This document shows positions 30,176-32,307 of a stretch of DNA of 64,000 nt, in pieces; positions within the stretch are counted from its first letter, which is position 1, and each line of letters starts with the position of its first letter. Under the pieces are notes generated by a model, which worked only from the letters and a program-made list of their open reading frames with translations, did no database searches and was not told the DNA's origin. The position numbers and the translations under genes were made by a program. This DNA comes from Dehalococcoidia bacterium (GTDB lineage: Bacteria > Chloroflexota > Dehalococcoidia > Plut-88900): NCBI GenBank assembly GCA_965249275.1, contig CBDFLQ010000006.1:192001-256000 (forward strand), in the 5' to 3' direction.

Positions 30176-30248
30176 GACATATCAGCCATGTTGCAAAGCA
30201 ACATGGCTGATATGTCAATGAAACAGGGCGGGTGGGTGGGAACCAATT
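30176..30248 (+). repeat. 19-bp hairpin plus G-quadruplex-motif module, copy 2
   Basis: Perfect 19-bp stem (30176-30216) followed by AATGAAACA-GGGCGGGTGGGTGGG-AACC. Confidence 0.75.
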
Positions 30249-30364
30249 AAACGGGGTTGGGAGGGGCCCTACCCCCTCTCCCTCTGATATGAGAGGGTTG
30301 GGGCCGTAGGCTCGCTGAGGAGAGTGAGGGTGATTCCCCTCCTGGTAGGTGCGCCACCACCCCC

Positions 30365-30394
30365 TTGACCAAATCAAAACATTCGTGCTATATT
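30365..30394 (+). promoter_or_regulatory. sigma70-type promoter with overlapping LexA-box-like site
   Basis: TTGACC-N18-TATATT with an extended TG; the spacer contains AAAAC-ATTC-GTGCT, resembling AGAAC-N4-GTTCT. Confidence 0.55.
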
Positions 30395-30452
30395 ACATCC
30401 CAGGCTTCGGCCACGTATGTCGAGCCTAATCAGGAAAGGATCAAGGAGTCCC

Positions 30453-31103
30453 ATGAGTCGCAACAGCCTAACCAGCACACGTCGTAACCGAGCGGTATGG
30501 GACCGCCCGGCAACCGGCACGCGCCTCCTCCTTAGGCCCCAACCCTACCCCGTGTCCCTCGGCAACACCATGAATCCACTGAGGATGACCCTAATAGCCA
30601 GCGCTCCCTCTCGGCCACCTTTCCCGCAGCGACAACTCGCCGCGGATGCCTGCGGGCTCCTCCCGCAGATGATTTCCCTCGGCTACCCTGGCCACCGTGC
30701 TAGCGGCTTCGCCGCGGATGCCCGCTTTCCCTCGCCGCGGATGATAACCCACGGCTCACACCCCCAGCGAGCTTGCCCCACGACCGTGGATGCCTGCGGC
30801 ATTGCGCCGCGGATGATTTCCCGCTCCGCCCTCATCGGCGTAGAAGCGGATGCCTGCGGCATTGCGCCGCGGATGATCTCCCGCTTCTCCCTCCTTGGCG
30901 TAGAAGCGGATGCCTGCGGCATTGCGCCGCGGATGATCTCCCACGTCCCGTCCCAGGCCGCAGAGGGAGCGCTGGCAACCCTCATCCTCACCTTGTCCCA
31001 GTCCCTTTCCCTCTGTCCATCTTCCTCCCGTAGGGGCGACTGGCCGGTCGCCCTGGGGACAGGAATCCCCACCCCCCTCCACCCACGAAAGGAGGCTGTC
31101 TAA
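30453..31103 (+). CDS. hypothetical repeat-containing ORF (ADACGIAPRMIS-like x5); coding status uncertain
   Basis: AAGGAG RBS; repeat periods of 72 and 60 nt keep the frame. There is no recognisable domain and the 3' part runs through REP-like DNA. Confidence 0.4.
   Translation: MSRNSLTSTRRNRAVWDRPATGTRLLLRPQPYPVSLGNTMNPLRMTLIASAPSRPPFPQRQLAADACGLLPQMISLGYPGHRASGFAADARFPSPRMITHGSHPQRACPTTVDACGIAPRMISRSALIGVEADACGIAPRMISRFSLLGVEADACGIAPRMISHVPSQAAEGALATLILTLSQSLSLCPSSSRRGDWPVALGTGIPTPLHPRKEAV
30624..30940. repeat. tandem array of ten hairpins with fixed ATGC / ATGATHWC linkers
   Basis: Five units starting 30642, 30714, 30786, 30846 and 30906, consensus GCGGATGCCTGCGGCATTGCGCCGCGGATGAT; the stems covary. 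Confidence 0.85.
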
Positions 31104-31272
31104 CCTCCCACACTCCACAACCGAATATGAAACATCCGCCTTTGGCGGAGCCGCTTCAACAGGGCCAAAAACTTCACAACCTGGATGCGGGGGCGGTCCC
31201 CCACCCCTCACATAAGAGAAAAGCGCCGACCCAATCGCCAGCGCTTTCCCTGCTCAAAGCGGAATATGCAGG

Positions 31273-32307
31273 TCAATTCCTGAAGTAAGGCATCACCTTC
31301 TCGGATATCTCCCTCATCATCCCCTTCTTGTCGATAATCGAGAACAGTACCGTGGAAACGTTGTCTATCCCGAGCGGCTGCAGCTTCTCGATCTGCTCCC
31401 CGATATCATCCGGAGTCCCCGACAACATGAATGTGTCGATCACTCGCGGCGACACAACCAGGGAGTGCGGTGCGTCCGTCAATTCGTGCTGGTACGGATC
31501 GAAGGCGTCATATACCGCTTTGATCTCCTCAACTATGCCCGGTTGCACCTCTTCCATCCGGTTCCGCAGGTCCTCGACCTCCGGGGTCTGTCGTCTCAAC
31601 AGCGACCTGTACATCTCACACGCACACGTTGCCGCATAGGAAGCCACTTCCCTCCGAGCCGCTTCCTTGGAAGGCGCAACGTAGATCATAGTACGCGCCC
31701 ATTTATCTATGTCGTCCAGCGACCTCCCCGCCTTCTCCGCCCCCTTCTCCATTACCTCCAGGCTCCACTTCAAGATCGTCGGATTCACGCCTATCAGGAT
31801 CGCTCCCTCCGCCAACTCCCCAGTCATCCGCAAAGACTTTGGCCCGACTGTTGCCATGTACACGGGAATCTGCCTGCGGCTCCACTCCGAGTGCATCATC
31901 GCACCGTCGTACTCCACTTCCTTGCCCGCCGTGTACCCCTTGAAGAACTCGATTACATTCCGAAATTCGTCCATCGACCGCGCCTTCATCCCCATCGTCA
32001 TCACCGAGCTAAACCCCGCCCCGATCCCGAGAAATGCCCTTCCACCTGACAGTTCATTCACTGTCGCCGTGCCATTCGCCGTCACTGATGGATGCCGCGT
32101 GAACGGGTTTGTCACCCCATGCCCGATGTGAATCCGGTGCGTGTTTACTGCCGCCACAGTCATCATTGAATATACTTCCCGGCACAGGTTCTGCGAATCG
32201 ATAAGGGTCATTTGCTTGAATCCGCAGTCCTCCGCAACCTGGGCGTGAGTAGCAACCTCATCAAGCCTCAGGTTCCGCCCCATGCCGACACTGAAATCGA
32301 ATTTCAT
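31273..32307 (-). CDS. LLM class flavin-dependent oxidoreductase (Mer-like)
   Basis: DSQ, GVTNPFTRHP, ELSGGRAFLGIGAG, GPKSL. Confidence 0.9.
   Translation of the reverse strand: MKFDFSVGMGRNLRLDEVATHAQVAEDCGFKQMTLIDSQNLCREVYSMMTVAAVNTHRIHIGHGVTNPFTRHPSVTANGTATVNELSGGRAFLGIGAGFSSVMTMGMKARSMDEFRNVIEFFKGYTAGKEVEYDGAMMHSEWSRRQIPVYMATVGPKSLRMTGELAEGAILIGVNPTILKWSLEVMEKGAEKAGRSLDDIDKWARTMIYVAPSKEAARREVASYAATCACEMYRSLLRRQTPEVEDLRNRMEEVQPGIVEEIKAVYDAFDPYQHELTDAPHSLVVSPRVIDTFMLSGTPDDIGEQIEKLQPLGIDNVSTVLFSIIDKKGMMREISEKVMPYFRN

Follow-up and report, generated by a model that had tools for sequence, protein, structure and literature searches.

The 64,000-nt stretch of a Dehalococcoidia bacterium genome analyzed here (hereafter the window; contig CBDFLQ010000006.1) carries an array of ten hairpins, arranged as five two-hairpin units, within an open reading frame (ORF). 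This array would be an in-frame, translated palindromic minisatellite of 60-nt (20-codon) units in a fast-evolving ORF, an interpretation to which we give about an even chance. Since the stems rather than the amino acids are conserved, we would place it among palindromic repeats lying in frame within genes and not among guide or sponge RNAs. The unit lengths are always multiples of three (60 nt, 72 nt in the older units and 57 nt in relatives), the unit stems and their 3' linkers (GG-AUGC and GG-A(U/A)GA) are constant or change in a compensatory manner, and the encoded residues drift almost neutrally. Furthermore, whole units have been gained and lost between orthologous loci, and the module recurs in three or more gene contexts, all within one genus. 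The reading frame, which an initial annotation of the same DNA had treated as a side remark, is the main constraint on the locus.

In the window, the variable hairpins lie at positions 30624-30645 (22 nt), 30677-30717 and 30749-30789 (41 nt each), and 30821-30849 and 30881-30909 (29 nt each), and all of them are followed by ATGC; the 19-nt hairpins start at 30650, 30722, 30794, 30854 and 30914 and are followed by ATGAT(T/A/C)(T/A)C. On direct reading, this layout matched base for base the one proposed in the initial annotation. The AUG claimed there to follow every hairpin is indeed present in the window, but in the other gene family described below the second linker is AAGA. The unit periods are, in order, 72, 72, 60 and 60 nt, which in frame gives repeats of 24, 24, 20, 20 and 20 residues (..VEADACGIAPRMISRSALIG..); Tandem Repeats Finder reported only the final 2.6 copies of 60 nt. 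In size (19-29 nt, with stems of 7-11 bp), the hairpins are short GC-rich imperfect palindromes of the kind found in repetitive extragenic palindromes (REPs) and bacterial interspersed mosaic elements (BIMEs). When folded singly, seven of the ten were better than dinucleotide shuffles (z -2.4 to -4.3, with 0-3 of 200 shuffles equal), and those at 30677, 30722 and 30749, that is, both 41-nt hairpins and one of 19 nt, were weak (z about -0.8); at 30749 the CCACGG/CCGTGG closing stem is absent from the minimum-energy fold. For the whole array, the comparison with shuffles gave z -4.6 on the + strand and -4.7 on the - strand. The array is in turn closed by a long-range helix of 17-18 bp (Table 1), a feature that the initial annotation had not listed, and the arms of this helix are kept in the loci of the same family, where they are read as ..SAPSRP.. 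and ..AEGALA...

The conservation of the pairing was evaluated on 97 distinct 62-nt units from nine genomes. Standard pairs were present in 93.0% of the cells, against 30.7-64.7% when the 3' partners were slid. Changes on both sides were observed at 8 of the 16 pairs, and the covariation score was 0.189 versus 0.113 in shuffled sets, a value reached by none of 500 shuffles, although such counts overstate the independent events because the units are related and partly homogenized. The covarying closing stems claimed in the initial annotation are in this way borne out across genomes, and it is the pairing, not the amino acids, that is conserved, the opposite of one of the outcomes by which that annotation would have been refuted. 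As an example, CCACGGC..GCCGTGG takes the place of CCGCGGC..GCCGCGG, with changes of Arg to His and of Arg to Trp, and GGT..ACC is found in place of GGC..GCC. Hairpins of 16 nt stand in for those of 19 nt (a 3-nt change), and the usual variable hairpin can be replaced by an unrelated 11-bp hairpin (CCGTGCCCTGG..CCAGGGTACGG). The hairpin flanks GG-ATGC and GG-A(T/A)GA are invariant. Third codon positions are also invariant in stems and linkers (GAT and never GAC in the 97 units), and the loops vary; GTAG is present only within some variable hairpins, with GTTG, GCAG or GTCG in others. In the stem cells, G.U was counted 127 times versus 24 for A.C (60 versus 24 without the dominant pair), an excess that points to the sense strand. 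When the window peptide was kept fixed and its codons were redrawn from the genome usage, 69% +/- 5% of the 57 native pairs survived and none of 5000 draws retained 100% of them, in a test whose structure was itself derived from the native sequence. These comparisons support the view that the structure of the array would be selected at the nucleic-acid level.

To follow the reading frame, we used 42 loci, made up of 40 related loci and the two arrays of the genome to which the window belongs (G000, hereafter the own genome). The strict unit motif is present in 39 of them, and none of these 39 has a stop within the array in the frame GAT-GCC-TGC-GGC (D-A-C-G, read as DACG..APR..). In 21 loci that belong to a second gene family (type B), the array is located in one frame between an ATG just behind the promoter and a conserved domain of about 110 residues. 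The upstream ATG is present in 19 of the 21 loci, and in all of them the array is in frame with the downstream domain, which is followed in the same frame by an acidic tail and a conserved C-terminus (..RIARGRPPP). As only 4 of the 21 domains start with a Met, translation must start upstream of the array. Per codon position, the differences amount to 0.184/0.104/0.258 in the domain and 0.168/0.133/0.233 in the Arg-rich linker, a coding signature, and in the type B array they are flat (0.168/0.174/0.183). Lying in frame between a start codon and a domain with a coding signature, the array would therefore be translated in this family. In the family of the window (type A), 17 of 21 loci have a single ORF that begins at a conserved Shine-Dalgarno sequence and ATG, spans the array and is kept open up to the 3' arm of the closing helix. 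The 17 lengths take 11 distinct values, all divisible by three, and here the three codon positions show differences of 0.239/0.252/0.285. For the window ORF, a predicted tryptic peptide is SALIGVEADACGIAPR.

The array serves as one of the alternative cores in a superfamily of cassettes that carry a promoter and number at least 41 per genome, and the other members are informative with respect to the frame. In the members of family A that have no array, the chosen frame was stop-free in 11 of 11 cases, with 1-12 stops in the other frames; their eight distinct lengths are all multiples of three, and their codon positions are flat (0.248/0.252/0.248). The cassettes with a non-ATG leader have core lengths of 0, 1 or 2 modulo 3 and stops in every frame, and one of these has an A-type core. 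The open frame thus goes with the start codon, which argues for translation of the frame.

The three contexts in which arrays were observed (type A, type B and the locus L044) are all genes specific to the lineage, and they lack a Pfam match. When the window ORF, one type B protein and one family A protein were scanned against Pfam, nothing exceeded the cut-off. The AlphaFold model of the type B domain was poor (predicted local distance difference test, pLDDT, 64.8; predicted template modeling score, pTM, 0.32), and Foldseek found no match for it in the PDB at E<=0.001. In the ESM Atlas it matched only unnamed Chloroflexota clusters (0.90-0.92), and small-terminase-like clusters (0.80-0.82) are leads only. 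The third context, L044 (G003:C7:618800-621400), resembles the others in its promoter but differs in its short N-terminus, and the sequence downstream is unrelated; its array has 5 units (DARGLVPWKKTRSALIGVEA..), and the unit variants alternate.

The distribution of the module was studied with a covariance model of the 62-nt unit (R1) and by BLAST. The model found 17-44 units in each of the eight same-genus Dehalococcoidia genomes (metagenome-assembled genomes), and in 112 other genomes it gave only 3 marginal matches (E 1.6e-4 to 7.6e-4). With the array as BLAST query, several loci were obtained in each of the same eight genomes, none in the three other genera of the family, and only noise (E>1e-4) elsewhere among 100 relatives. 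In the own genome there are 10 units, all of them in the window array and in a second array on another contig; a lone motif match (G000:C7:104636) was rejected as a chance occurrence inside an unrelated gene. In general, the units occur only in arrays of 1-7, with strict 60-nt spacing, and never solitary or dispersed, and the hairpins all have the same orientation, on the sense strand of promoter-driven ORFs. Being confined to arrays, the units are not scattered genome-wide like ordinary REPs, a behavior that the initial annotation had named as one that would speak against a new system.

A comparison of orthologous sites showed the turnover of the module. The loci L038 and L054, from two sister species, are orthologs of the window locus (91-93% identity of the downstream gene) and lack the first 72-nt unit. 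The intergenic site of the window holds a diverged array cassette in one further species (G004); the type A gene was not found at this site in G001 or G003, and in G006 and G007 the flanking genes are only 135-230 nt apart. In addition, four metatranscriptome runs, two of them labelled sponge metagenome, contain contigs 88-99% like the leader and the array. These contigs, which show the same 72-nt skip as L038 and L054, are short assemblies of relatives and may include DNA, and their uncovered parts and depth are uninformative. Relatives are thus present in RNA libraries, on which basis we did not count the region as untranscribed (the initial annotation had set that outcome against its own proposal); transcription of the window locus is not thereby demonstrated.

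Slippage, unequal exchange and recombination among paralogous cassettes may account for the spread of the module. It would persist by not interrupting the translation of the host ORF, as Rickettsia palindromic elements (RPEs) and intragenic REP clusters do, and in the mRNA the hairpins probably stabilize the transcript and slow the ribosomes.

Several points weigh against the interpretation as a translated minisatellite, in addition to the limits given above for the covariation counts, the recoding test and the RNA-library contigs. The same sequence pattern would arise from active selection on a functional RNA, and both translation and transcript ends are predicted from the sequence. Of the other frames, +1 crosses the array without a stop in 4 of the 39 loci and +2 in 28, so that the array alone does not define the frame and the flanks decide. 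It should also be noted that 4 of the 21 type A loci have a broken ORF and an intact array, two of them sharing the break across two species; arrays can therefore persist without translation from the usual start. The global folding energy of the native sequence did not differ significantly from that of synonymous recodings (z -1.0 and -1.8). Regarding mobility, filled and empty sites are too diverged to read target duplications, and no enzyme or mechanism was found for the array: the Y1 transposase (Y1_Tnp, PF01797), which is the domain of the REP-associated tyrosine transposases (RAYTs), is absent from the 9 genus genomes searched, and the control was found in 6 of 14 reference genomes.

Table 1. 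Coordinates of the array and of the accompanying features in the window
Feature	Position	Strand	Basis or remark
Sigma-70-type promoter TTGACC-18-TG-TATATT	30365..30394	+	10/12 consensus matches; 1 site vs 0.4 expected
Family A leader: Shine-Dalgarno AAGGAG 30443-30448, ATG 30453-30455, encodes MSRNSLTSTRRNRAVWDRPATGTRLL...	30400..30599	+	
ORF of 216 codons through leader, array and tail	30453..31103	+	Open in 17/21 related array cassettes
5' arm of the long-range array-closing helix, AGCGCTCCCTCTCGGCC	30600..30616	+	Minimum-energy and centroid folds
Hairpin array: five units (variable hairpin)-ATGC-(19-nt hairpin)-ATGATNNC	30624..30940	+	Direct reading, folding
3' arm of the array-closing helix, GGCCGCAGAGGGAGCGCT	30956..30973	+	Minimum-energy and centroid folds
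GTAG-tagged palindrome (GTAG + GGGCGACTGG/CCGGTCGCCC), REP-type, in the ORF tail	31030..31053	+	Class named after PMC3733652
CACAACCGAATA, 3' boundary of the cassette, where inter-cassette similarity ends	31116..31127	+	

As we mentioned before, the array belongs to a cassette. The strong promoter noted in the initial annotation proved to be near-consensus (Table 1), and it is common, near letter for letter, to at least 41 cassettes of the own genome. A looser promoter pattern gave 41 sites in this genome (2.9 Mb), 37 of which cluster by similarity. The promoter and about 130 nt of leader have about 13 other copies there, with 73-85% identity, and the 3' tail recurs too. The window cassette measures about 0.8 kb, from the promoter at 30365 to CACAACCGAATA ending at 31127, and G000 has 40 or more additional sites, among them L078-L083. 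In the common layout, the promoter has behind it 190-290 nt of leader, a long-range helix (..ATGGAAG.. paired to ..CTTCCAT.., or compensated variants, e.g. GGAAGACGC/GCGTCTTCC), some 300-520 nt of core, a C-rich stretch that often carries REP-type palindromes, and a terminal CACAACTGAATA, at which the similarity stops. The cores are of several unrelated types, and in the window copy the hairpin array with its own closing helix replaces the usual helix-plus-core, in which the structured core measures 390-520 nt. Family A is the branch with a maintained ORF and neutral amino-acid change; the family D cassettes have a perfect AAGGAGG, no start codon and stops in all frames. The leader of the commonest non-ATG family is present in 8 of 8 same-genus genomes and in none of 92 others. 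No Rfam match was obtained in the 64-kb window at the gathering threshold, and for 30200-31300 at E<=10 there were only chance-level rows (E>=0.13). Among 12 sister loci no cassette was matched by Rfam, and the only match was to the unrelated Ms_IGR-5 (RF02471, an actinobacterial small RNA family), at L008 2897-3091 on the - strand (G000:C5; 58.9 bits, gathering 45, E 4.4e-11). In the literature, searched in main texts, no description of this array or of the cassette family was found. The superfamily is large and unannotated, restricted to one genus among the genomes searched, and occupies about 1% of the genome without any Rfam or Pfam match; in gene calls it appears under the label "hypothetical proteins" in hundreds of entries (421 and 98 database matches).

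Among the alternatives, the one that survives best sees in the array a structured RNA with a function of its own, whose stem-loops and conserved 3' linkers would make up a multivalent scaffold recognized by an RNA-binding protein or a nuclease. Translation would then be secondary, perhaps for transcription-translation coupling or for opening the structure, for example. We regard this as possible, if on the whole unlikely. Stems and linkers that are invariant even at synonymous sites beside variable loops, covariation, the predominance of G.U over A.C on the sense strand and a strong promoter are all consistent with it. In the same direction point the long closing helix, which is as in the structured cores of the sister cassettes, and the persistence of arrays in the four loci with a broken ORF. 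Moreover, the sister cassettes that lack an ATG clearly do not code for protein, and the commonest family of them is rich in pairs (146 in the consensus, 7 with compensatory changes). However, the array is restricted to one genus, its copy number varies freely (1-7 units), it has neither a conserved neighbor gene nor an Rfam match, and in type B it lies inside a real protein. A broader form of this idea, which we consider unlikely, takes the array as an interchangeable core of an undescribed class of RNA genes, a multivalent RNA scaffold or dual RNA/peptide device and not selfish DNA. In that case the Arg-rich peptide may be the scaffold's own ligand or a by-product, and leaders, translated or untranslated, and helix-closed cores are proposed to be shuffled between the cassette copies of about 0.8 kb. 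If the hairpins act in RNA, they would represent a new kind of multivalent RNA module within mRNA.

The array could also be an ordinary protein tandem repeat, basic and of 20 residues, with the hairpins as a by-product of a GC-rich repetitive sequence. Unit lengths in multiples of three, the open frame, the in-frame fusion to the real type B domain and the null result for the global folding energy all fit this explanation, but the way in which the array varies makes it quite improbable. A protein tandem repeat under purifying selection should change less at codon positions 1 and 2 than at position 3 and show an excess of synonymous differences, a pattern that the array fails: its codon positions vary equally, and the synonymous share of its codon differences is only 0.19-0.21, versus 0.39-0.43 in the neighboring domain and linker. 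Also against it are the third positions that stay invariant in stems and linkers, the compensatory changes that alter residues radically, and the fact that none of the synonymous recodings keeps the native pairs.

At the level of DNA, the hairpins could be extruded from single-stranded DNA and serve as substrates of a strand-specific recombinase or HUH enzyme (REP/RAYT- or IS200/IS605-like), with the 3' tetranucleotide as a cleavage tag. Hairpins with a conserved flanking tetranucleotide would suit such an element, the genome is rich in GTAG- and CGTC-tagged REPs, and both units and cassettes are multi-copy and vary in presence between species. We nevertheless see little chance for it, because Y1_Tnp is missing from all nine genomes of the genus, the units are never solitary or dispersed, and all hairpins are co-oriented on the sense strand, where the abundant G.U pairs correspond to A.C mismatches on the other strand.

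As to a CRISPR-like or guide array, a CsrA/Rsm-type sponge or a multi-core precursor of ribosomally synthesized and post-translationally modified peptides, the alternation of constant and variable stretches, the 9 GGAUG motifs of the array and the Cys-containing peptide repeat recall them, but they are hardly credible: the interiors resemble each other, pair with the flanks and have no match in phage, plasmid or IMG/VR collections; both G's of each GGAUG sit in the closing stem of the preceding hairpin; CsrA (PF02599) had no match in the own genome (87% complete), to which the search was confined and for which the control was found in 3 reference genomes; and in relatives Arg, His or Tyr stands in place of the Cys, while the residues drift neutrally. 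The guide and sponge options of the initial annotation are thus not supported, and its "dual-function RNA/peptide" and "new REP-type mosaic" come closest to our results. The ORFs within about 2 kb, named by eye, are an HdrB-like gene, a membrane protein, an LLM oxidoreductase and an Mrr-like gene. No cas genes were seen among them, a dedicated cas/PADLOC scan not having been run. The neighbor genes of the array (HdrB-like, membrane protein, LLM oxidoreductase) differ between species and none is conserved. The earlier statement that there is no recognized partner gene is supported, and no known RNA family was found in the Rfam searches.

Other repeats were observed in and around the cassettes. 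No T-run follows the GTAG-tagged palindrome in the tail of the window ORF; this palindrome is repeated about 10 more times in the genome. At 30259-30338, immediately upstream of the promoter, there is a REP-like element (..CCCTCTCCCTCTGATATGAGAGGGTTGGGG..) with about 40 similar copies on three large contigs. In the ORF tails of type B and family A (L033-L072), palindromes tagged with GTAG (GTAGGGGCGACC..GGTCGCCC) and CGTC (CCGTCATTCCCGA..TCGGGAATCC) lie in frame and are read as ..PVGATGWSP.. / ..PVGVPLVGTL.. (GTAG) and ..VIP..ESIP.. (CGTC). On the 3' side of the cassette, at 31131-31149, the hairpin GAAACATCCGCCTTTGGCGGA scores on the - strand as the terminator of the LLM gene, and a near-identical copy of it is present three times in tandem inside the leader of another cassette (G000:C5 near 477280). 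The cassette G000:C5_169167 (L005) has a family A core with seven in-frame 18-nt hairpin units of the GGGCCATCGTGCCC type, read as ..AIVPxR.., and units of this type occur in one or two copies in other cassettes. Finally, an IS481-like transposase of 320 residues has 12 copies in G000 with 91-100% identity (e.g. L002, G000:C7:346804-347763). Several of these copies lie within a few hundred bases of cassettes, and one truncates the type B gene that holds the second array. As they have no fixed arrangement, the transposase was rejected as a partner of the cassettes.

With respect to known systems, the array resembles a CRISPR array in that a constant hairpin stretch alternates regularly with a variable stretch behind a promoter. 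Unlike in CRISPR, the variable stretches are of 14-33 nt, similar to each other and paired with their flanks, they have no foreign match, and the whole region is an ORF.

A second similarity is found with the BOX elements (boxA-boxB(n)-boxC), which are likewise mosaics of modules, with two end modules that enclose tandem middle units in varying number. The end modules of BOX pair with each other, and the elements, which are transcribed, number more than 100 and are scattered between genes. In contrast, the array is confined to a few ORFs and has an enforced reading frame. According to PMC10969869, large BOX elements of Streptococcus pneumoniae can contain ORFs.

Regarding REPs and BIMEs, the tags of the array are 3' AUGC and A(U/A)GA, and not GTAG or CGTC, and its period is strictly in multiples of three. 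In BIMEs the orientation of the hairpins alternates, whereas the hairpins of the array all have one orientation. Given the different tags, units that are never solitary or inverted and the lack of a RAYT in the nine genus genomes, we do not consider the array a member of this group. The likeness is with intragenic or clustered REPs, which are short, GC-rich stem-loops that carry a conserved tetranucleotide at their flank, often contain G.T pairs and form clusters in tandem (PMC3733652). Di Nocera et al. (PMC3733652) describe some REP clusters that are inside genes and encode 43-82 residues, REPs clustered in blocks at few loci of Thermomicrobium roseum, also a member of the Chloroflexota, and REPtrons that can be lost.

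The array can also be compared with the RPEs, hairpin-forming palindromes that lie in frame in ORFs and are translated as extra peptide segments, leaving the host frame intact (PMC10969869 and PMC3733652). Like RPEs, the palindromes of the array keep the host ORF open, in one frame in 39 of 39 loci. Unlike them, with which it has no sequence relation, the array consists of tandem 60-nt two-hairpin units in only three lineage-specific contexts of one Dehalococcoidia genus, whereas an RPE is inserted singly, measures about 100-150 bp and is found in Rickettsia housekeeping genes that are unrelated to each other. In the array region three constraints are legible from the sequence, namely a maintained frame, near-neutral amino-acid change and conserved, covarying stem-loops, and the region is a natural test of how palindromic repeats colonize coding sequences and of whether they generate new protein segments, the questions raised by the RPEs.

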